From Candidatus Cryptobacteroides sp. (GTDB lineage: Bacteria; Bacteroidota; Bacteroidia; Bacteroidales; UBA932): 64,000 bases of DNA. The notes beneath the pieces are model-generated. The model made no database searches. It worked only from the letters and a program-made list of their open reading frames with translations, and was not told where the DNA came from. The position numbers and the translations under genes are program-made. The stretch's first letter is position 1. Each line of letters begins with the position of its first letter. The stretch covers positions 113 to 64,112 of the forward strand of contig JBGVAE010000093.1 in NCBI GenBank assembly GCA_045224215.1. Reading direction: 5' to 3'. Shown piece after piece: positions 6,341-15,304 of this stretch.

Positions 6341-7731
6341 CATCATTGAACAAGGAAATATTGCGGCTGGCGCTGCCGAGCATCCTGGCTAACATCACGG
6401 TTCCGCTGGTGGGGATGGTGGACATCGCCGTAGCAGGGCATCTGGACGCTTCTGCCGCGGCATTGATAGGCGGCATCTCGGTCGGCTCGCTGATGTTCGA
6501 CATGCTCTACTGGAACTTCGGCTTCCTTAGGGCCGGAACGGGCGGGATGACTGCCCAGGCTTTCGGCCGGGAGGATTGGGCTGAGTGCAAGTCTCTTCTG
6601 TTCCGAGGGGTGGGCATGGCCCTGCTGGCCTCCTTGCTGATCCTTGCCATCCAGTGGCCGTTCCAAAAATTGATGTTCGTATTCGTCAACTGCTCGGAGG
6701 AGGTCAAGTCTTTGGCCCTCAAGTATTTCTACATAAGGGTGTGGGCTGCTCCGGCCACTTTGAGCCTGATGGCGGTAAGGGGTTGGTTCATTGGGATGCA
6801 GGACACTTTCAGTTCGATGCTGACCGATGTCATTGTGAATGGTGTAAACATCCTTGCCAGCATATTCCTGGCCCTGGGAATTCCTGGAACAGGCTTCAGG
6901 GGCGTCGGTTATGTCGGAATTGCGTGGGGGACGATCCTGGCTCAGTATACGGGCCTGATGTTCGCGGCCGGGGTCATCGCCGTGAAATACAGGCAGAAGG
7001 TGAGACTCCCGGCAGAGCCGGTGCGACCTTCAACCCACGGAAAGGATTCCATGAGGCAGTTCTTCTCGGTGAACGGCGACCTGTTCGTAAGGTCGCTTTG
7101 CCTTATGGCGGTCTATCTGGCTTTTACGGCCATCTCAGCACGCTTCGGGGACGTCCTGCTGGCCATGTGCTCCGTCATGATGAAACTGATGATGATCTTT
7201 TCCTTCTTCACCGACGGCTTCGCTTTTGCCGGAGAAGCCCTGACAGGAAGGTTCATCGGGATGAAGCGGGAGGACCTGCTGCGCGAAGAAGTCCGACGGA
7301 CATTCGCCTGGAGCCTCGGGATAGGGATGCTGTTCGTCCTGATCTATTGGCTGGGCGGGATGGGGATGTTCCGCCTGATGACTTCCGACACTACAGTCGT
7401 CGATGCAGCAAAAGCCTTCCTGCCTTGGCTCGTTCTGATGCCGCTCATCGGCTGCCCCGCCTTCACCTGGGACGGAATATTCATAGGAGCAACGGCGACA
7501 CGCGAACTGAGGGATTCCACCCTGGGCTGCGTAGTCTCATTCTTTGCAATATGGTGCCTTGGCTTCCTTCTTTTCAAGCCGGAAGGTAACGGCCTTGTGC
7601 ACCTCCTGTTTGCGGCATATTACGCCCACCTGATATTCAGGTCACTCTATCTCACGGCCAGATACCAGTCGACCGTCCCTCTCAGGGCCGGCCTGACCGG
7701 CAGGTCTGAAGGATCTCGGCGAAATCCTTGA
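6337..7731 (+). CDS. MATE family efflux transporter (DinF-like)
   Basis: EILRLALPSILANITVPLVGMVD, FGFLRAGTGGMTAQAFG, DGFAFAGE, DGIFIGAT motifs. Confidence 0.9.
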   Translation: MTSLNKEILRLALPSILANITVPLVGMVDIAVAGHLDASAAALIGGISVGSLMFDMLYWNFGFLRAGTGGMTAQAFGREDWAECKSLLFRGVGMALLASLLILAIQWPFQKLMFVFVNCSEEVKSLALKYFYIRVWAAPATLSLMAVRGWFIGMQDTFSSMLTDVIVNGVNILASIFLALGIPGTGFRGVGYVGIAWGTILAQYTGLMFAAGVIAVKYRQKVRLPAEPVRPSTHGKDSMRQFFSVNGDLFVRSLCLMAVYLAFTAISARFGDVLLAMCSVMMKLMMIFSFFTDGFAFAGEALTGRFIGMKREDLLREEVRRTFAWSLGIGMLFVLIYWLGGMGMFRLMTSDTTVVDAAKAFLPWLVLMPLIGCPAFTWDGIFIGATATRELRDSTLGCVVSFFAIWCLGFLLFKPEGNGLVHLLFAAYYAHLIFRSLYLTARYQSTVPLRAGLTGRSEGSRRNP

Positions 7732-9616
7732 CTTTCACCTTGCGGATATTCTCCCCGGTCGCATTGGAGACGGCTTCGGAGAATGTCTTGAGGCAGAGCG
7801 GGCAGGCTGTCACAATCGTGTCAGGATCGTTTGCCACAAGGCTGGAAAGAGCTGATTCCGAAATCTTCGCCCTATCCCTTGCATCCAATGTCAGGCTTCC
7901 CAGGCTTCCGCCGCAGCAAAGGCTTTCGTCATATTCCTTGGAGGCTTTCACAAGGGTTCCTACCTGGCTGATGGCTGCCCTTGGCTCATAATAGACCTTG
8001 CAGCCGCGGCCAAGTTCACAAGGGTCGTGATAGACCATCTTTTCTTCTGTCTTTGAAGGGACCAGCTTTCCGGAAGCGATCAGTTCGTTGAAGAACTGAG
8101 TGTAATGCATGACCTTTATTCCTTCCAAGTGGTATTCTTCCTTGAATATCTTGAAGCAGATAGGGCAGGAGAGGACAAGGGTCTTGCAGCCGGATTCTTC
8201 GATCATCTTCTTGTTGGCGGCAATGGTCTTTGCTGCTGCGTCATTCCTCCCTGCAAGCATCAGGGGCCTTCCGCAGCATATTCCGCCATCCCTGTCAGCG
8301 AAGACATAGCTGACTCCGGCGGCCTTGAAGACTCTTTCCACGGACTTGATTATGCGTGGGGTCAGATGGGTCATGCAACCTGCGAAATACATTACTTCAG
8401 GAGCAGCCGCAGCAAAGCGAGGATGGACTTCGCCGGGCTCGGACTGCTGTCCGGCGACACCATCAAGGTATGCATAATCAAACGGGAGCGAATTGTTGAC
8501 GGTCGCGCGCTGGGCACGGCGCAGAGCCGGAGCATCCACTTCGACAGGACAAAGCGCATGACACTTGTCGCACATCAGGCACTTGTCTGCAATCGCATTG
8601 ATCTTCTTCTCATTATGCCGTCTCAAGAACCTTATGAAATACACCGAAGAATATTTCAGGTTCTTCTTCTGCACATTCATCGGACAGGCATCCAGGCACA
8701 ATCCGCAACTTGAGCAGGCATATATCTCAGCCTCAGCCACACCCTTGCGCGGATGGTTCGGCTTGATCCCGGCGTTGCGGAGCAAGATCCAGAGCACCTC
8801 CGTAAGGATGTGCATGTACCGGCTGAAAGGCATCGCAGCGAAGAAAAGCCCGAGGCAGATGGAATACAACCACCAGCTAGGCATTATCCAAAGCTTGTCT
8901 CCGAATATCAGATGCCAAAGGTGGTTTACAGGGATCGTGAGGAAACTGCCTCCGCTGAGGTCGGCAGTGAAACTCTCGGCAAGAAGCCTCATCGGGAATA
9001 TCAGCCAGAGGCTGTAAAGAGCCACACGGTCTGCGAACGAAGGCTTAGTCGTGTGCTTCATTCCAAGGGCTATGGACCTGAATCTCTTGAAGACCGCAAG
9101 TGCGATTCCGGAGAGGACATACAGGAGGAAGAAGTCCATCAGGAAGAAGAACAGTCCTCCCTTCAAGGTCGTATGGCCAGGATTGATCCAGACGAAGAAA
9201 CGGTAGAATATCGGATAGAAAAGGGCTGTCTTCGACATCCCTAGCCGTTTCGGTACGAATAAGGCCACTTCGATGTGTCCGAGCACTATAAGCATGAACC
9301 ATCCGAAGGCGATCGCACTGTGCATGTACCCCAGAAGCGGTTTGCGCTTCCAGATCTTCACGTGGAAGAGGCAGTCGCAGAACAAGTCTCTGATGTTCTT
9401 GAGGGCGGTCGTCGGGGTTACAAGCGACTTCCAGAGCCTGACCCTGTCCGTATGTGGGATCTTTGCCAGGAGCCTGATGCAACCTACCGTGATCCAGCAA
9501 AGGAAGAAAACGATGCCGACGCAGAAAGGTATGACGAAGTGATTGTATCCGGAAGGGATCCTGTCGATAACCTCCGGCACTTCCTGGGCTGCAAGGATAT
9601 AGGACAGAGGTATCAT
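7682..9616 (-). CDS. Membrane Fe-S oxidoreductase: hydrophobic HdrE/NarI-like N-region + 2x[4Fe-4S] + two CCG domains (HdrD-like)
   Basis: Several TM segments with His residues; CSSCGLCLDACP and CLMCDKCHALCP; FAGC..ICCG..SCPIC and HDPC..LCCG..ACPLC. Confidence 0.85.
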   Translation of the reverse strand: MIPLSYILAAQEVPEVIDRIPSGYNHFVIPFCVGIVFFLCWITVGCIRLLAKIPHTDRVRLWKSLVTPTTALKNIRDLFCDCLFHVKIWKRKPLLGYMHSAIAFGWFMLIVLGHIEVALFVPKRLGMSKTALFYPIFYRFFVWINPGHTTLKGGLFFFLMDFFLLYVLSGIALAVFKRFRSIALGMKHTTKPSFADRVALYSLWLIFPMRLLAESFTADLSGGSFLTIPVNHLWHLIFGDKLWIMPSWWLYSICLGLFFAAMPFSRYMHILTEVLWILLRNAGIKPNHPRKGVAEAEIYACSSCGLCLDACPMNVQKKNLKYSSVYFIRFLRRHNEKKINAIADKCLMCDKCHALCPVEVDAPALRRAQRATVNNSLPFDYAYLDGVAGQQSEPGEVHPRFAAAAPEVMYFAGCMTHLTPRIIKSVERVFKAAGVSYVFADRDGGICCGRPLMLAGRNDAAAKTIAANKKMIEESGCKTLVLSCPICFKIFKEEYHLEGIKVMHYTQFFNELIASGKLVPSKTEEKMVYHDPCELGRGCKVYYEPRAAISQVGTLVKASKEYDESLCCGGSLGSLTLDARDRAKISESALSSLVANDPDTIVTACPLCLKTFSEAVSNATGENIRKVKVKDFAEILQTCRSGRP

Positions 9617-9942
9617 ATCTTTCCGTAGGTTTTATTGATTGAGAGGATGAGGTGCCTGGTGTTGATTCCCCGCGGGCAGACCATAGTGCATTTTCCGCAG
9701 AACTGGCAGGACTTCAACATGGACAGAGCCTTGTCCGGCTGACCGTTGTGGATTGACTCTATCGCTTCACGCAGGCTGGTCGCAGCGTACTTGCCGGCAG
9801 TGCAGACAGCCGTGCAACTGCCGCAAGCCATGCATTTGCGGACATCCGGCTCGACGGCTGCGAGTTCCTCGTACTTGGCCTTGTCGAAGAGGTCGAGGTT
9901 TATCCTTGAACTGGGCACAAGCCCGAAACCGAAATCTACCAT
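9613..9942 (-). CDS. Small 4Fe-4S dicluster protein (HdrC-like)
   Basis: CMACGSCTAVC and CQFCGKCTMVCP motifs in 109 aa. Confidence 0.85.
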   Translation of the reverse strand: MVDFGFGLVPSSRINLDLFDKAKYEELAAVEPDVRKCMACGSCTAVCTAGKYAATSLREAIESIHNGQPDKALSMLKSCQFCGKCTMVCPRGINTRHLILSINKTYGKI

Positions 9943-10991
9943 ATCTCCCTTACCAGATTCTTGTAATGCTTCGCTTCAGGGAATATCTCGGAGAGGTACT
10001 GGTCGATCAGGACGGCAGCGGCACGCGCATCGGCCAAGGTGTCCGGAAGAGTCTTGGGGCCGGTGGCAGCTCCGGCAAGGAATATTCCCGGATGAGGGCT
10101 TCTCTGACCGGAGACGATACCCTCCCTGACGGCGAAATAGCCATCATCCTCAACAGGCATTTCAAGCAGGTCCCCTACCCTGCGGCCTGCTTGCGAAGGA
10201 CGCATCCCGGCCATCAGGACCAGCAGGTCCAGGTTCACCTTCAAAGGCTTGCTGGCAACGGTGTCCTCCGCCTTGACCTGGAGGGATCCGTCCAGATTTT
10301 CTGCGACTTCCGCCACACGTCCGCGGATGAAGCGGATTCCATAATCCTTCTGGGCCCTCAGGTACATGTCTTCATAGTGGCGGCCGAAGAGCCTCAGGTC
10401 CATGTAGAAACAGAAGACGTCGGCATCCGGGAAGGCTTGCTTCATCTCGATGGCCTGCTTGACGGCAGTCGCGCAGCAAACCTTCGAGCAGGAACGGCAT
10501 CCGGACTTCTCGTCACGGGAGCCTACGCAATGGACGAAGCCGATCTTCTTCGGATTCTCGATCCTGCTGTCGAACTTGTTCCTGAAATATGCTTCAAGGT
10601 CGGCATTCGTGATCACCCGATCGTATATTCCGTAGCCATATTCCTCCTTCTTGGAAGCCTCGAACAGGTCGAAGCCGGTGGTCATGAGCACTGCATCGGC
10701 CAGTACGGTGATTCCGTTGGAAAGGATCACGTTATAGGATTTGTCCAAGCGGTTGATGGACTGGATTTCGGTGTCCAGGAAGTACTTCACGCCCTTGATC
10801 CGGTCGGTCATGGAACGGAGGGTGTCCTGGGCGGATACTCCTGTCGGAAAAAGGCGGTCCCACCTGGCCAGATGGCCACCGAGGACGGAAGCCCTCTCGA
10901 TCATTATCACATTGTAACCCAGTCGCTGGAGTTGAGCCGAGGCTTCCAGGCCGGCAGGTCCTGCGCCTACTATAAGTACGTTATTCTTCAT
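9936..10991 (-). CDS. hdrA: Short heterodisulfide reductase subunit A-like FAD/Fe-S protein
   Basis: VLIVGAGPAG FAD motif, ER..VLGGH, HCVGSRD...CSKVCC, DLRLFG, GIRFIRGRVAE, GIFLAG. No ferredoxin CxxCxxCxxxCP motifs. Confidence 0.88.
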   Translation of the reverse strand: MKNNVLIVGAGPAGLEASAQLQRLGYNVIMIERASVLGGHLARWDRLFPTGVSAQDTLRSMTDRIKGVKYFLDTEIQSINRLDKSYNVILSNGITVLADAVLMTTGFDLFEASKKEEYGYGIYDRVITNADLEAYFRNKFDSRIENPKKIGFVHCVGSRDEKSGCRSCSKVCCATAVKQAIEMKQAFPDADVFCFYMDLRLFGRHYEDMYLRAQKDYGIRFIRGRVAEVAENLDGSLQVKAEDTVASKPLKVNLDLLVLMAGMRPSQAGRRVGDLLEMPVEDDGYFAVREGIVSGQRSPHPGIFLAGAATGPKTLPDTLADARAAAVLIDQYLSEIFPEAKHYKNLVREIW

Positions 10992-10992
10992 A

Positions 10993-12057
10993 TCACTTCA
11001 AACATGTGCAAGGAAGAGGCTGGCCAATGTCCTTCCCTCCCTTGCCGAGGTATTTCTTGCTTGGATCGTATTCTATTCCCATCTTGTCCAGGAGAGGCTC
11101 CACTCCCACCTGGTGGGTCTGGAGGCCAAGGTCCCAAGGGTCGTAACCCATCACCAGACCGGCGAGCTCCTCGTACGTGAGCACCGGGATCCCATGACCA
11201 TTCTCTCCGTAGGTCTTGCCTGTGGATTCGGCAATCACATACTGCCACCTGTCCAGGAAATACGGGCATCCGGGGCAATTGGTGATGATGAGGTCCGGCT
11301 TGTAAGGCTCCATGCTTTCGAATTTCTTGTGGGTGTTCGACAGGGAATATCCCCTGTTCCCCTTAACGAAATACTGCCTGAAGCCGAAGCCGCAGCAATG
11401 ACGCCTCTCAGGATAGTCCACGATCTCCCCACCCCAGGCTTCGGCCATGCCGACGAGGACGTAGGGATATTCAGCACCACCGACTCCCTTGGAAGGGAAC
11501 ATCTTGGAGTAGTGGCAGCCGATGTGCTCCACTACACGGAGAGGCTCGCCAGTGTGGATGTTCACAAGTTTGTGGACGGCCTGCTGGGCTATGAGGTTGC
11601 GATACTTGTAGATAAGGTCGCTCGCGTGGATAAGGAACTTCGGCTTGGCGAATTCCAGCTTGCAGGTCTTCCATAGGTTTTCCCTTATCTTCGCCTCCAG
11701 TTCCGGGTATTCACGCCAGGTCTCCATCGTCTCGCAGTAGAGGCCGAAGGACGTTATGCAGGAACAAACATAGTTCTCATAACCGTTCTTAGCCATCAGG
11801 GCGAACTGGCGGGCGATGATGGTCATCACCGTTTCCTGCGGGATGGTGTCGCTGTGATAGGCTATTCCTCCACAGGTAGTGTGATGCTCCGTCTCGAATA
11901 TATCTTTCCCCAGACGGTTCCTGGTAATGTCCAGGAAAGTCGCTTCGGACGCGGGGAAGAAACTCTGCCTGATGCAGCTGCGGACATAGAAATAATGGTC
12001 GTCAGGGATTTCTTTCTGGTAGTCGGACCAGATCTTCTGTTTTCCTTCGTATATCAT
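10993..12057 (-). CDS. hdrB: Heterodisulfide reductase subunit B-like (CCG domains)
   Basis: RSCIR..TTCGG..CSCITS and HIGCH..HCCGFG..NCPGC cysteine pattern. Confidence 0.88.
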   Translation of the reverse strand: MIYEGKQKIWSDYQKEIPDDHYFYVRSCIRQSFFPASEATFLDITRNRLGKDIFETEHHTTCGGIAYHSDTIPQETVMTIIARQFALMAKNGYENYVCSCITSFGLYCETMETWREYPELEAKIRENLWKTCKLEFAKPKFLIHASDLIYKYRNLIAQQAVHKLVNIHTGEPLRVVEHIGCHYSKMFPSKGVGGAEYPYVLVGMAEAWGGEIVDYPERRHCCGFGFRQYFVKGNRGYSLSNTHKKFESMEPYKPDLIITNCPGCPYFLDRWQYVIAESTGKTYGENGHGIPVLTYEELAGLVMGYDPWDLGLQTHQVGVEPLLDKMGIEYDPSKKYLGKGGKDIGQPLPCTCLK

Positions 12058-12060
12058 CTG

Positions 12061-12756
12061 CTAATGATTCAAATGTTTTGGGTCACTGGTATTGTAAACC
12101 ATGCCGATGAATTCCTCCTCGGTCATTCCGAGTTCGGCAGCCTTCCTGAGGCCGGCCGCTCGGACCTTCTCCATCCTTTCGGTCGCACCGGTCTCGTCGA
12201 AGATCGCCTTGAGCTGGTCGAGGTCTTCCTGCGGGATGCGCCGCATTGCTCCCGGCCCAGGGCCGTCCAGGTTGCCTCCCAGACGTTCAAAGACATCATC
12301 CAGATGCTTTTCTTCCCATTCCCATACCTTCCCGGCTTCAGGATGGCCATCGTAGCCGAAACGGCGCGGGTAGACGCAGTAGCCATATTCAAGGACATTG
12401 GAGCACAAGTCCTTGGTGAGCAGGAACTGCTGGCGCCCTTTCTCGGAGTCTATGAAATACCCTAGTTCTATGGAAAGGTTGCGCAGGGCCATGATCACCA
12501 GGCCGGCGGCATTCTTTCTCGGACACCTGGTCACGCAGCTCATGCACTCGCCGCAATACCAGATCGTGTCGCTCTTGAGGAGTCTCTCTATTTCCGCTTC
12601 ATCCTTGCTCTGCACTATGTCTACGATCCGGCGGGGATCATAGCGGTAGAACTCCGCGGCAGGACAGACCGCAGTGCAGGTGCCGCAGTTGATGCACGCA
12701 TTGAGGCCTTCCTTCAGGCGGTAATCCTTCATCAGGAGGTCGTATAACTTACCCAT
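12061..12756 (-). CDS. hdrC: Heterodisulfide reductase subunit C-like
   Basis: CINCGTCTAVCP and IWYCGECMSCVTRCPR; directly upstream of the hdrB-like gene. Confidence 0.88.
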   Translation of the reverse strand: MGKLYDLLMKDYRLKEGLNACINCGTCTAVCPAAEFYRYDPRRIVDIVQSKDEAEIERLLKSDTIWYCGECMSCVTRCPRKNAAGLVIMALRNLSIELGYFIDSEKGRQQFLLTKDLCSNVLEYGYCVYPRRFGYDGHPEAGKVWEWEEKHLDDVFERLGGNLDGPGPGAMRRIPQEDLDQLKAIFDETGATERMEKVRAAGLRKAAELGMTEEEFIGMVYNTSDPKHLNH

Positions 12757-13234
12757 TGTTCTGCTTGTTTAGAGGGTACTTCCTGGCAAGTTCTTCAAGG
12801 TCGCTTCCAGGATTCATGTTCTTTTCCATCTTGGTAAGGGTGGCGACGAAGCCTTCGAGTTCCTCCTTAGGAATGCCGCCTATTATCTTGCCGACAGAAG
12901 AATATGCCAGCCTTGTGACCTTGTCCCGTATGGTCAGGGAATACGGAGTGACCTTTATGAGATTCTGCCGGCGGTCGTCAGGGTTGACGACACGTCTGAC
13001 CAGTTTCCTTGCTTCGAGACCGTCAATCAGCTTGACTATCGAATTCTTGTCCCTCAAGGTGATGTCGGCGATCTGCTGCTGGCTCAGGACCCCTTCCATC
13101 CAGAGGGTGTCTATCACGAGGAACTGTTCCGGGGTGAGATTGTATCCCCCGTTCTTGAATTCATCCGTCATGCACTGTTTCACGTTACTGTGCACGATGT
13201 TCATGAACAGGATGATCTGTTTCTCTAGTACCAT
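12749..13234 (-). CDS. MarR family transcriptional regulator
   Basis: LTPEQFLVI, LSQQQIA, IVKLIDGLEARKLVRR..PDDRRQNLIKVT winged-helix signature. Confidence 0.9.
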   Translation of the reverse strand: MVLEKQIILFMNIVHSNVKQCMTDEFKNGGYNLTPEQFLVIDTLWMEGVLSQQQIADITLRDKNSIVKLIDGLEARKLVRRVVNPDDRRQNLIKVTPYSLTIRDKVTRLAYSSVGKIIGGIPKEELEGFVATLTKMEKNMNPGSDLEELARKYPLNKQNNG

Positions 13235-13239
13235 GTTTT

Positions 13240-13293
13240 ATTGTAATACCTTTTACTATTTACAAAAGTAATACAATATGATGAATGGTGCAA
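13240..13293 (-). promoter_or_regulatory. Promoter of the marR-hdr operon with an overlapping imperfect inverted repeat (candidate MarR operator)
   Basis: Minus-strand TACTTTTG (-7) at 13263-13270 and TTG at 13291-13293 with a 20-nt spacer; ATTGTAATACCTTTT (13240-13254) and AAAAGTAATACAAT (13264-13277) form an imperfect inverted repeat. Confidence 0.6.
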
Positions 13294-13300
13294 GTATTTG

Positions 13301-14251
13301 TTAACGGAATTTCTTGTCCTCTACGAGCATACCCAGATAGGAATTGTATCGCTCGGGTGAGATAATCCCCTGCTCCACAGCCTCTTTTACGGCACATCCC
13401 GGTTCATGGGTATGCGTGCATGGAGTGAAGCGGCAGTTTCTGGAAGCCTTTAGCATCTCCGGGAAATACAAGGCGACTTCTTCTTTCTTTAGATCCACAA
13501 GGCCGAATCCCCTCAGGCCGGGAGAATCGATCAGGAAACCTCCGGAAGAGATAGGATACATCTCATAAAGGGAAGTCGTGTGCTTGCCTTGCAGGTGTGC
13601 AAGCGATATGTCCCCGACCTTCGGATCGAGAGATGGGTCCAAAGCCTTGATTATGGAAGATTTGCCGACCCCGGACTCGCCTGAGAAAAGGCACACGCGT
13701 CCCTCTTCAGGGGAACCGGTGGCAACCCGAAGGGCATCTATTCCCTCTCCCGTAAGGGCGGATGTCTCAATCACCTGATAGCCTGCTCCTTCGTAAATCC
13801 TATGGAAAGCTTCAAGCTCTTCCGGGAACTCTTCCTTGAATATGTCCAGCTTGTTGAGAACGATGGTGGCCGGTATGCCATAGACCTCGCAGGTGACCAG
13901 AAGACGGTCCAGGAAAGGAAGCTTTATCTCGGGGAAATACAATGTCACAACGAGGAAGGCCCTGTCCAGGTTCGCTGCGATCACGTGAGCCTGCCTGGAG
14001 AGGTTGGTGGAGCGGCGGATGAGGTAGTTCTTCCGCTCGAGGACCTTGACAATGGAAGCCGGGTGTTCGAGGGAGGGCTCCCGGGAAGCCTCATAGGTAA
14101 CCCGGTCTCCGACTGCGACGGGATTGGTGGCTTCGCTTCCGGAAAGGCGCACCTTGCCTTTCAAGACCGCAGGGAAAGGCTTCCACTGCGGTAGTTCGGA
14201 CAGCAGGAAATGGCTGCCCGCATTCTTGACAACTGTTGCTTCTCCGGTCAT
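13301..14251 (-). CDS. rsgA: Ribosome small subunit-dependent GTPase A
   Basis: AVGDRV, IAANLD, LNKLD, SGESGVGKSS, GKHTT, IDSPG, CRFTPCTHTHEPGC zinc motif. Confidence 0.95.
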   Translation of the reverse strand: MTGEATVVKNAGSHFLLSELPQWKPFPAVLKGKVRLSGSEATNPVAVGDRVTYEASREPSLEHPASIVKVLERKNYLIRRSTNLSRQAHVIAANLDRAFLVVTLYFPEIKLPFLDRLLVTCEVYGIPATIVLNKLDIFKEEFPEELEAFHRIYEGAGYQVIETSALTGEGIDALRVATGSPEEGRVCLFSGESGVGKSSIIKALDPSLDPKVGDISLAHLQGKHTTSLYEMYPISSGGFLIDSPGLRGFGLVDLKKEEVALYFPEMLKASRNCRFTPCTHTHEPGCAVKEAVEQGIISPERYNSYLGMLVEDKKFR

Positions 14252-14320
14252 CCCGATGGCAAATTTACCAAAAATGACTATATTTACAAGACTGAAAACA
14301 TAACTTCCATCAAACTGAAC

Positions 14321-15304
14321 ATGGTAAGACAGGAAACCATCGATGCTGCCATACGGAACCTATTCAAGGACATTAAGTTTCCTTCCGAACCGGCAGGACT
14401 CTACGACCCACTCGGATACATGATAGCCATAGGCGGGAAAAGGCTCCGCCCAAAGCTTTGCCTGACGACATATTCACTGTACAAGGACAGTTTCGACGAG
14501 GGAATCCTGGAGCCTGCCGCAGGATTGGAGGTTTTCCACAGCTTCACCCTCATCCACGATGACATAATGGACCGTTCCGAGCTGAGGCGCGGAGTGGACA
14601 CCGTCTGGAAGAAATGGAATCCGGACACTGCGATCCTGTCCGGTGACGTGATGTGCATAGACAGCTATTCAAGGATAGCCAAATGCCCAGCAGCTTCATT
14701 ACCGGAAGTATTGGCCCTCTTTTCCAAGACTGCTGCGGAAGTCTGCGAAGGGCAGCAGTATGACATGGATTTCGAGAGCAGGGAGACTGTCAGCATGGAA
14801 GAATACACTAGGATGATCGGTCTTAAGACCGGTGTCCTCATTGCTTGTTCGGCAAAGATGGGCGCCTTGATCGCAGGAGCTCTGAAGAAGGATTGCGACA
14901 GCATTTATGACTACGGCTACTCCCTCGGCCTGGCTTTCCAGGTGGCGGACGATTACCTGGATGCCTTCGGAGACGAGAAGGTTTTCGGCAAGCCGATCGG
15001 AGGGGACATCCTGAACGAAAAGAAGAGCTGGCTCACGATAAGGGCTTGTGAGAAGGCGTCGGAGGAGGAACGCAAGGAATTGCTTGAGGCATTCACCTCC
15101 GCGGCGGGAACCCAGGAAGAGAAGGCTGCAAAGATCGCCCGCGTCAAGGAGATGTACATCCGCCTGGGGGTCGGCGAGGATGCCCAGGAAATGATCCGTG
15201 AATATACGAGGATCGCCCTCAGGCACGCAGCAAAAGCGTGTGAGGGCGTCCGTTTCGAAACTCTGAGGAGGTTCGCCGACAAGCTGGTCGGAAGGACCAG
15301 CTGA
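14321..15304 (+). CDS. Polyprenyl diphosphate synthase family protein
   Basis: GGKRLRP, HDDIMDRSELRRG, CEGQQYD, KTG, FQVADDYLD, GGDILNEKK. Start ATG 14321 (ORF track 14210). Confidence 0.92.
   Translation: MVRQETIDAAIRNLFKDIKFPSEPAGLYDPLGYMIAIGGKRLRPKLCLTTYSLYKDSFDEGILEPAAGLEVFHSFTLIHDDIMDRSELRRGVDTVWKKWNPDTAILSGDVMCIDSYSRIAKCPAASLPEVLALFSKTAAEVCEGQQYDMDFESRETVSMEEYTRMIGLKTGVLIACSAKMGALIAGALKKDCDSIYDYGYSLGLAFQVADDYLDAFGDEKVFGKPIGGDILNEKKSWLTIRACEKASEEERKELLEAFTSAAGTQEEKAAKIARVKEMYIRLGVGEDAQEMIREYTRIALRHAAKACEGVRFETLRRFADKLVGRTS

Follow-up and report, generated by a model that had tools for sequence, protein, structure and literature searches.

A membrane-linked heterodisulfide reductase-like operon of Bacteroidales with a possible role in forming sulfite for sulfonate precursors

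A 64,000-nucleotide stretch of DNA from a Candidatus Cryptobacteroides sp. (GenBank assembly GCA_045224215.1, contig JBGVAE010000093.1, positions 113 to 64,112; hereafter 'the window') carries an operon for a MarR-family regulator and five proteins related to heterodisulfide reductase (Hdr). The five proteins are best explained as a hybrid, in which a core of the sulfur-oxidizing Hdr-like (sHdr) type, HdrC1-HdrB1-short HdrA, is combined with a membrane module of the HdrDE/EtfD type. We tentatively propose, with a confidence only a little short of even, that the product of the operon is a complex under MarR control, anchored in the membrane and linked to menaquinone, which forms sulfite from reduced sulfur.

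Positions 7682-13234 of the minus strand are filled exactly by six overlapping or abutting open reading frames (ORFs). The junctions between marR, hdrC, hdrB, hdrA, the ferredoxin gene and the membrane subunit gene are, in this order, -8, +3, +1, -7 and -4 bp. The original prediction of six minus-strand genes is borne out by the ORF listing together with matches to Pfam and NCBIfam models, and the record names of the nearest homologs and loci support its assignment of the DNA to a Bacteroidales-type genome. The five genes that follow marR are listed below, with protein lengths in amino acids (aa).

12061-12756, minus strand: hdrC-like gene (HdrC1), predicted electron-transfer subunit, 231 aa; Fer4_8 and related families (Pfam)
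10993-12057, minus strand: hdrB-like gene (HdrB1), putative catalytic subunit, 354 aa; CCG family, best NCBIfam model HdrB
9936-10991, minus strand: gene for a short HdrA-like flavoprotein, 351 aa; Pyr_redox_2, best NCBIfam model HdrA/HdrA2
9613-9942, minus strand: gene for a small ferredoxin, 2x[4Fe-4S], 109 aa; Fer4 dicluster families
7682-9616, minus strand: gene for a single-chain HdrE/HdrD-like membrane subunit with the EtfD/EMO fold, 644 aa; Fer4 and two CCG domains

The HdrA-like protein, which is encoded by a single-copy gene in the window's genome, combines a thioredoxin-reductase-like fold that binds flavin adenine dinucleotide (FAD) with one [4Fe-4S] site and lacks the ferredoxin domains of methanogen HdrA. 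Its best match in the PDB is 6TJR (residues 5-327 against 4-334, E 5e-58), which we take to be the sHdrA subunit of the sulfur-oxidizing Hdr-like complex from Hyphomicrobium denitrificans (Ernst et al., cited in PMC11094781). The equivalents of Cys155, Cys168, Cys172 and Cys173 of sHdrA are conserved. Methanogen HdrA aligns only over residues ~96-327, the thioredoxin-reductase-like core.

The HdrB-like protein has a complete CCG site in its C-terminal half (C181, C221, C222, C261 and C264) and a non-canonical one in its N-terminal half, where only C28, T61-C62 and C100 are present. This N-terminal pattern, C / T-C / C-x-T-S-[FY]-G, is invariant in an alignment of Bacteroidales HdrB sequences with three type II sHdrB1 proteins, whereas methanogen HdrB instead has CC and CxxC at the positions of the first site. 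The type II proteins used for comparison come from clusters of the same phylum (loci L024, L025 and L028) with the order shdrC1-B1-A-B3-etfBA-emo. The HdrB-like protein scores 137-139 bits against these sHdrB1 sequences versus 104 bits against methanogen HdrB. Across the order, HdrB is the most conserved subunit (57-94% identity, compared with 39-80% for HdrA and 36-80% for the membrane subunit), which fits the putative assignment of HdrB as the catalytic subunit.

The best NCBIfam models for the HdrC-like protein are those of HdrC (86-89 bits, under their equivalog cut-offs), and its two CxxCxxCxxxCP motifs account for two predicted cubane [4Fe-4S] clusters. The small ferredoxin, with eight cysteines in two motifs, gives weak NCBIfam matches to HdrC and to the ferredoxin inserted in HdrA. 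It is kept at the same position in 74 of 80 loci, the slot held by sHdrH or sHdrC2 in sHdr clusters, and is presumed to act as a wire from HdrA to the membrane subunit.

The soluble HdrABC-like module foreseen in the original prediction is thus present, but the 6TJR match and the HdrB1 pattern make it one of the sulfur-oxidizing sHdr type (C1-B1-short A) rather than a methanogen HdrABC. The methanogen HdrABC-MvhAGD complex has homologs of HdrB, of HdrC and of the thioredoxin-reductase-like core of HdrA. Unlike in that complex, HdrA is half as long, having neither the N-terminal nor the ferredoxin domains, and there is a membrane anchor. No MvhD, hydrogenase or formate dehydrogenase partner was found, although hydrogenases were not specifically searched for.

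The HdrB-like protein ends in a tail with two further cysteines, C350 and C352. In 66 of 79 loci the last six residues of this tail (10993-11060 in the window) include one or two cysteines, in endings such as PCTCLK, KCC, KCF and CPSCIK; the tail cysteines are absent from type II sHdrB1. The tail is reminiscent of the arm of DsrC, which bears cysteine, and might serve HdrB as a sulfur carrier of its own.

The 644-aa protein begins with a hydrophobic region of ~290 aa that has no family annotation, followed by a di-cubane domain and two CCG domains. Among 73 homologs, all eight cysteines of its two cubane motifs (C301-311 and C346-356) are invariant, as are all ten cysteines of its two complete CCG motifs (C414/447/448/484/487 and C533/567/568/605/608) and four histidines of the transmembrane region (His 85, 99, 114 and 269). 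An AlphaFold2 model built with 43 homologs (pLDDT 88.6, pTM 0.84) has approximately five transmembrane helices, which superpose on the membrane domain of EtfD; heme binding is predicted only. The top Foldseek match of the model is Mycobacterium smegmatis EtfD, 9ojn (E 3.8e-19, TMq 0.69, TMt 0.60, 761 columns), the same PDB entry that is found by sequence (E 1.5e-24), and further matches, to HdrB chains and LutA, fall on the C-terminal half. Over the membrane domain alone, the sequence alignment to EtfD is not significant, and heme ligands are not assignable from it.

EtfD from M. smegmatis and EMO from Syntrophus aciditrophicus are NarI-type heme b proteins that resemble HdrDE; electrons from ETF reach menaquinone by way of their noncubane and cubane clusters (PMC13083937; bioRxiv 10.64898/2026.08.18.745454). 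Their distal cluster is altered and shielded, being a [3Fe-4S] or [4Fe-5S] cluster (PMC13083937; bioRxiv 10.64898/2026.08.18.745454). The 644-aa protein shares with them its fold over the whole chain, the domain order of transmembrane, cubane and noncubane parts, and a predicted link to menaquinone. However, its sequence identity to EtfD is only 17%, it has four invariant transmembrane histidines compared to the two heme ligands of EtfD, and both of its CCG sites are canonical. Its gene also has no etfAB beside it, the neighbors being those for HdrA and a ferredoxin. In type II sHdr clusters, EMO and sHdrB3 have a degenerate first CCG domain with no cysteines and a second with four. This difference in cysteine content rules out the membrane subunit as an ortholog of type II sHdr EMO. 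Because all ten CCG cysteines are kept, compared with altered or degenerate sites in EtfD, EMO and sHdrB3, the protein is best described as a fused subunit of the HdrE/HdrD type.

This description is in line with HdrDE of Methanosarcina, which couples a membrane quinone-like carrier to S-S chemistry. Each contains a pair of cubane motifs and a pair of canonical CX(n)CCGX(n)CXXC motifs, and the membrane domain of the model, with approximately five helices, may be of the b-cytochrome type. Unlike HdrDE, the protein studied here comes from a bacterium, has the two parts fused in one chain and would be joined to a HdrCBA-like soluble module; its carrier would be menaquinone in place of methanophenazine. 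MenA is encoded in the window's genome, and menaquinone should therefore be available. Taken together, the EtfD fold, the cubane and CCG motifs and MenA support the earlier proposal of a HdrABC-like soluble module joined to a membrane-bound, probably quinone-linked module resembling HdrDE.

An alternative reading is that the proteins do not form a sulfur enzyme. A module like EtfD/EMO or Lut/Glc/GlpC could link a dehydrogenase or an organic substrate to menaquinone, or the proteins could form a flavin-based bifurcating complex. In EtfD, EMO, GlpC, GlcF and LutA the CCG domains serve only in electron transfer, the membrane subunit scores 60-113 bits in its C-terminal half against NCBIfam models for LdhH, TfrB, GlcF and GlpC, and LutA is among the structural matches noted above. 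Against such a role, no dehydrogenase, ETF or substrate-binding flavoprotein is found in or next to the conserved cluster. HdrA is of the sHdrA type, without the ferredoxin domains and MvhD partner that are used in bifurcation. The high conservation of HdrB is as expected for a catalytic subunit, and the cluster co-occurs with sulfite-dependent enzymes, as described below. We consider a non-sulfur function very improbable.

sHdr systems occur in hosts such as Hyphomicrobium denitrificans, Aquifex and Sulfobacillus, in either a type I (shdrC1B1AHC2B2) or a type II (shdrC1B1AHB3-etfAB-emo) arrangement. The cluster studied here resembles them in the gene order C1-B1-A, with gaps of 1-3 bp, in its short FAD/[4Fe-4S] HdrA (351 aa compared to ~340-350 aa), in the non-canonical N-terminal cysteine pattern of HdrB1 and in having a second Fe-S arm after hdrA. 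A membrane CCG protein, putatively of the NarI type, is found here as in type II systems and suggests that menaquinone is the electron sink. In contrast to sHdr clusters, there is neither sHdrH with sHdrC2B2 nor sHdrB3 with etfAB and emo, and the second arm consists of a free ferredoxin and a membrane-fused HdrD-like protein that has two complete CCG sites. HdrB keeps the CxxC of its C-terminal site, the regulator is a MarR protein rather than the ArsR-type sHdrR, and the hosts are strictly anaerobic fermenters, not sulfur lithotrophs. Lipoate-binding protein LbpA, lipoate-maturation genes and a set of TusA, DsrE or rhodanese proteins are also missing.

Several absences were checked across the whole genome of the window, which comprises 2.41 Mb and is 98% complete. 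Only one gene of the GcvH family exceeds the Pfam cut-off; it scores as GcvH and is part of a gcvT-H-PA-PB operon, so that LbpA was not found; a second match to the family, at 21 bits, lies below the cut-off. No genome-wide match was obtained for TusA (PF01206) or DsrE (PF02635), and sHdrH was not found, its slot after hdrA being taken by the ferredoxin and the membrane fusion. The observation that mvhD/flxD and dsr genes are missing from the window extends to the entire genome, where there is no match to MvhD/FlpD (PF02662) or to the NIR_SIR family, and hence no DsrAB or sulfite reductase. For apr and hydrogenase genes, at which no specific search was aimed, the absence is that seen in the window. 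There is likewise no genome-wide match to the PAPS_reduct family, and thus no CysH or CysD. Homologs of EtfAB are encoded on another contig, and etfAB genes are neither within nor adjacent to the cluster in ~80 loci.

sHdr systems convert sulfane sulfur to sulfite, and those of type II are proposed to pass electrons to menaquinone (PMC11094781). They are reported to be always accompanied by LbpA and sulfur transferases (PMC11094781). The canonical sHdr pathway is ruled out for the window's genome, which is without LbpA, TusA, DsrE and sHdrH.

The distribution of the cluster was surveyed in 301 evenly drawn Bacteroidales genomes from 208 genera. The HdrA marker is present in 105 of these genomes and in 81 of the genera, and a pattern scan finds relatives of HdrB in at least 584 species genomes. 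The best 80 HdrB relatives are all from uncultured Bacteroidales of gut, rumen or digester. In the 80 species loci and in 13 further genomes, the genes follow the order hdrC-B-A-fd-membrane with hardly any exception. One case is rearranged: in a complete genome (G487, locus L123), hdrC, the ferredoxin gene and the membrane subunit gene are followed by hdrB and hdrA, with the five genes still together. MarR heads 27 of the 80 loci, most of which form one clade on the HdrB tree. A cultured, named carrier was looked for and not found; even the closed genomes are metagenome-assembled genomes (MAGs), for example Breznakibacter sp. and 'Bacteroidota bacterium'. Near-identical Bacteroidales hdr contigs (L030, L035, L037, L049 and L051) occur in MAGs labeled as Lachnospiraceae, Methanomethylophilaceae, Eggerthellaceae and Candidatus Egerieisoma, the last of which is filed under Clostridiaceae. 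The probable explanation is mis-binning of the contigs or an error in the labels.

Clustering of the neighboring genes identified one recurrent flanking gene, encoding a pyridoxal phosphate (PLP) enzyme, which in 27 of ~73 loci comes immediately downstream in the same orientation. This enzyme is cysteate synthase, as judged from scores of 449-485 bits against TIGR03844 (cut-off 325) and a match to PDB 9k3c (E 4e-166). Cysteate synthase condenses phosphoserine with sulfite in the first step toward sulfonolipids in Bacteroidetes. The adjacency is found in several HdrB subclades of the tree, with and without MarR, and a SulP permease gene follows cysteate synthase in seven loci.

In the window's genome, cysteate synthase (424 bits) is encoded on another contig. 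A SulA-like cysteate acyltransferase is also encoded (7u7h, E 1e-134; 28eh, 'cysteate-C-fatty acyltransferase', E 7e-129). Its gene (contig C83:26-1882, L114) is cut by the contig end, and the next ORF, of 273 aa, might encode a ketocapnine reductase. Because cysteate synthase and the acyltransferase are present and CysH and sulfite reductase are absent, this genome is predicted from its gene content to need sulfite without having a recognized way to make it. A thiol cofactor like coenzyme M (CoM) made from cysteate was rejected, since no sulfopyruvate decarboxylase (ComDE) scores over the cut-off. Use of CoM-S-S-CoB, the substrate of HdrDE, is accordingly not supported in this bacterial host; genes for coenzyme B were not searched for.

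In a genus-mate (G406, locus L029), rlmD and cysteate synthase flank an hdr cluster without MarR. The same two genes are convergent immediate neighbors in the window's genome (contig C37:4840-8553, L110), where they are not separated by any hdr gene. The MarR-headed operon is the sole hdr cluster of this genome; it falls in a different HdrB clade from that of G406 and shares its rsgA/MATE context with a more distant relative. Each of the two genomes thus has exactly one cluster, which is consistent with the two versions being interchangeable. Of the genomes in the window's family, three encode Hdr together with cysteate synthase and one encodes neither of them.

Over all 301 genomes, the association of cysteate synthase with Hdr has an odds ratio (OR) of only 1.8, and 73 of the 105 Hdr-positive genomes are without cysteate synthase, which rules out a one-to-one coupling. 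The signal appears only after genomes are stratified by CysH and ComA is added. In CysH-negative genomes, cysteate synthase is present in 14 of 32 with Hdr versus 5 of 70 without it (OR 10, p 3e-5), and the 14 genomes span nine families. In CysH-positive genomes there is no association (OR 0.9). ComA (phosphosulfolactate synthase, PF02679) is a second, unrelated enzyme that consumes sulfite. The ComA family is found in 106 of the 301 genomes and cysteate synthase in 71, with both in one genome only, a pattern that, like all co-occurrence statistics given here, ignores shared ancestry. It suggests that the two enzymes represent alternative sulfite-dependent routes to sulfonate precursors. One or the other is encoded in 84 of 105 Hdr-positive genomes compared with 92 of 196 Hdr-negative genomes (OR 4.5, p 2e-8). 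Among CysH-negative genomes the proportions are 21 of 32 and 10 of 70 (OR 11.5, p 4e-7). Neither enzyme has a copy in the window. Adjacency of ComA to the cluster was rejected as a general feature, because it is seen in one loose case only (G438), where truA and a tetratricopeptide repeat gene lie between. An unknown disulfide or persulfide had originally been predicted as the substrate. Comparative genomics points to sulfite and the synthesis of sulfonate-lipid precursors in preference to a generic disulfide, with the substrate and the direction of electron flow still being matters of inference.

If the complex forms sulfite, its reaction might proceed as follows. The HdrB-like subunit would act on reduced sulfur, most likely sulfane sulfur or a persulfide, at its non-canonical noncubane-cluster site. 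Four electrons would pass through the two cubane clusters of HdrC to the Fe-S cluster and FAD of HdrA, and from there to the small ferredoxin. The ferredoxin would deliver them to the noncubane and cubane clusters of the 644-aa protein, and its heme b membrane domain would reduce menaquinone, which could be re-oxidized by a fermentative respiratory chain. In an organism without reductases for adenosine phosphosulfate (APS) or phosphoadenosine phosphosulfate (PAPS), the sulfite product would be used by cysteate synthase for sulfonolipid synthesis. The gene content, cofactor motifs, folds, synteny and distribution are shown by the data, as is the co-occurrence with enzymes that use sulfite. In this scheme we infer the assembly of the five proteins into one complex, the path and direction of the electrons, the binding of heme and menaquinone, the substrate and the sulfite product.

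A more specific proposal is that the cluster represents a third sHdr-like type in anaerobic Bacteroidales, which is membrane-anchored and menaquinone-linked and dispenses with lipoate-binding and sulfur-carrier proteins. It would convert sulfide-derived sulfane sulfur to sulfite for assimilation, using the cysteine tail of HdrB as a built-in sulfur-carrying arm, and feed cysteate synthase or ComA for sulfonolipid precursors where sulfate cannot be reduced. We offer this extended version as a possibility on the doubtful side.

Several observations weigh against sulfite formation by the complex. Oxidation of S(0) to sulfite with menaquinone is approximately thermoneutral at standard potentials, as estimated from textbook values, and would therefore need removal of sulfite and re-oxidation of menaquinol. 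LbpA, TusA, DsrE and sHdrH are all missing although they are reported as constant companions of sHdr, and the chemistry may differ. The co-occurrence statistics, not being corrected for phylogeny, are supportive but are not proof. Ten of the 31 CysH-negative genomes with a sulfite consumer have no Hdr, and 21 of the 105 Hdr-positive genomes have neither of the two sulfite consumers. In a family-balanced sample, adjacency to cysteate synthase is seen only in the window's own family, and the window's genome itself has its cysteate synthase and hdr operon on different contigs. Finally, the membrane subunit keeps CCG sites of the catalytic type, which fit a disulfide-reducing end as well as an electron wire.

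Another reading is that the complex serves energy metabolism or detoxification, with no biosynthetic role of its own. Sulfane sulfur derived from sulfide, or a thiol, might be oxidized to feed a chain of menaquinone and fumarate reductase, or reactive sulfur might be cleared, with the link to sulfonates being secondary or ecological. The many Hdr-positive genomes without cysteate synthase, or without either sulfite consumer, are in keeping with this, as are the presence of the cluster in free-living lineages with 4-6 Mb genomes and the operon in the window, which stands alone with its own regulator. However, sharing of one operon with cysteate synthase in several subclades and the strong enrichment in CysH-negative genomes argue against this reading. 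In addition, the sulfite formed would be toxic, and nothing is recognized that would remove it. We judge such a role improbable.

The main rival to sulfite formation by oxidation is reductive S-S cleavage, whereas the dissimilatory or detoxifying and the non-sulfur readings are less likely. In a reductive enzyme resembling HdrDE, the electrons would come from menaquinol, or from another donor acting through HdrA, and an S-S bond would be cleaved at canonical CCG sites in the membrane subunit, in HdrB or in both. This bond might be that of a low-molecular-weight disulfide, of a persulfide or polysulfide, or of an S-sulfonate or thiosulfate, of which the last two would release sulfite. All ten cysteines of the HdrD/HdrB type are kept, including the bridging ones, and some or all of these are lost in EtfD, EMO and sHdrB3 (PMC13083937; bioRxiv 10.64898/2026.08.18.745454). 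The overall design of the membrane subunit matches HdrDE, and cleavage of S-SO3 would still account for the link to sulfite-using enzymes. However, unless extra energy is put in, disulfides or thiosulfate are poorly reduced by menaquinol (~-74 mV), and the soluble core is nearest to the oxidative sHdr type. Furthermore, no linked genes for thiol-cofactor biosynthesis and no ComDE are found, and the MarR protein has no conserved sensing cysteine. A reductive enzyme seems rather unlikely.

Gut Bacteroidales (Alistipes, Odoribacter and relatives) make sulfonolipids that have immunological activity. The first enzyme of sulfonolipid synthesis needs sulfite, yet many producers are strict anaerobes without APS or PAPS reductase, and a source of sulfite is not named in the sulfonolipid literature searched. 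If our proposal of oxidative sulfite formation is true, a regulated, quinone-linked complex would close this gap and tie the sulfide of gut and rumen to membrane lipids. The complex would also provide a stripped-down sHdr, without LbpA and sulfur carriers, for studying the sulfur chemistry of noncubane clusters. The architecture is not present in the published sHdr survey. The literature searched contains nothing that links Hdr-like genes with sulfonate metabolism in Bacteroidales, nor a description of the system, and no characterized ortholog came to light in these searches, in line with the original statement that no characterized substrate is known in Bacteroidota. The proteins are named in databases only as 'heterodisulfide reductase subunit A/B' or 'FAD-dependent oxidoreductase'. 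With the HdrA marker in approximately one-third of the sampled Bacteroidales, the 'heterodisulfide reductase subunit' label misleads metabolic reconstructions from rumen and gut metagenomes. New to this analysis are the comparisons stratified by CysH and extended to ComA and the comparison of cysteines with those of genuine EMO and sHdrB3 proteins. So are the conservation of the operator, the lack of conservation of the MarR cysteine, the cysteine tail of HdrB and the pattern of one cluster per genome in the genus.

Two further features precede the hdr genes.

12749-13234, minus strand: marR, winged-helix regulator, 161 aa; PF12802 (39.7 bits) and PF01047 (39.0 bits), both over cut-off
13240..13270, minus strand: promoter/operator region, a -7 box followed by a palindrome

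The gap upstream of marR is 66 bp. Between the rsgA stop codon and the marR ATG there is a Bacteroidetes-type -7 box, TACTTTTG (TAnnTTTG), at 13263-13270, followed by an operator-like palindrome, ATAGTAAA-N-TTAC(A/T)AT, at 13240-13259, whose end lies 5 nt before the ATG. Both elements are kept in nearly all of the other MarR-headed loci (~28), although the DNA further upstream is unrelated. No terminator-like sites were found on the minus strand inside the cluster. Together with the conserved box and palindrome, this supports the earlier claim that the genes share a single promoter.

The MarR protein has the winged-helix domain of its family and probably represses its own operon through the palindrome at 13240-13259. 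It lacks an OhrR-type sensing cysteine that is conserved: the column of Cys21, its sole cysteine, holds C in 11 of 30 orthologs, Y in another 11 and some other residue in the remaining 8. Because Cys21 is not conserved, a one-cysteine redox switch appears unlikely from the alignment, and a thiol-switch sensor of the OhrR type was rejected.

The genes that flank the operon are unrelated to the cluster, with rsgA and a polyprenyl synthase gene on one side and a convergent MATE transporter gene on the other. The polyprenyl diphosphate synthase gene (14210-15304, plus strand) is two genes from the operon, and its product could conceivably serve in making the menaquinone side chain.

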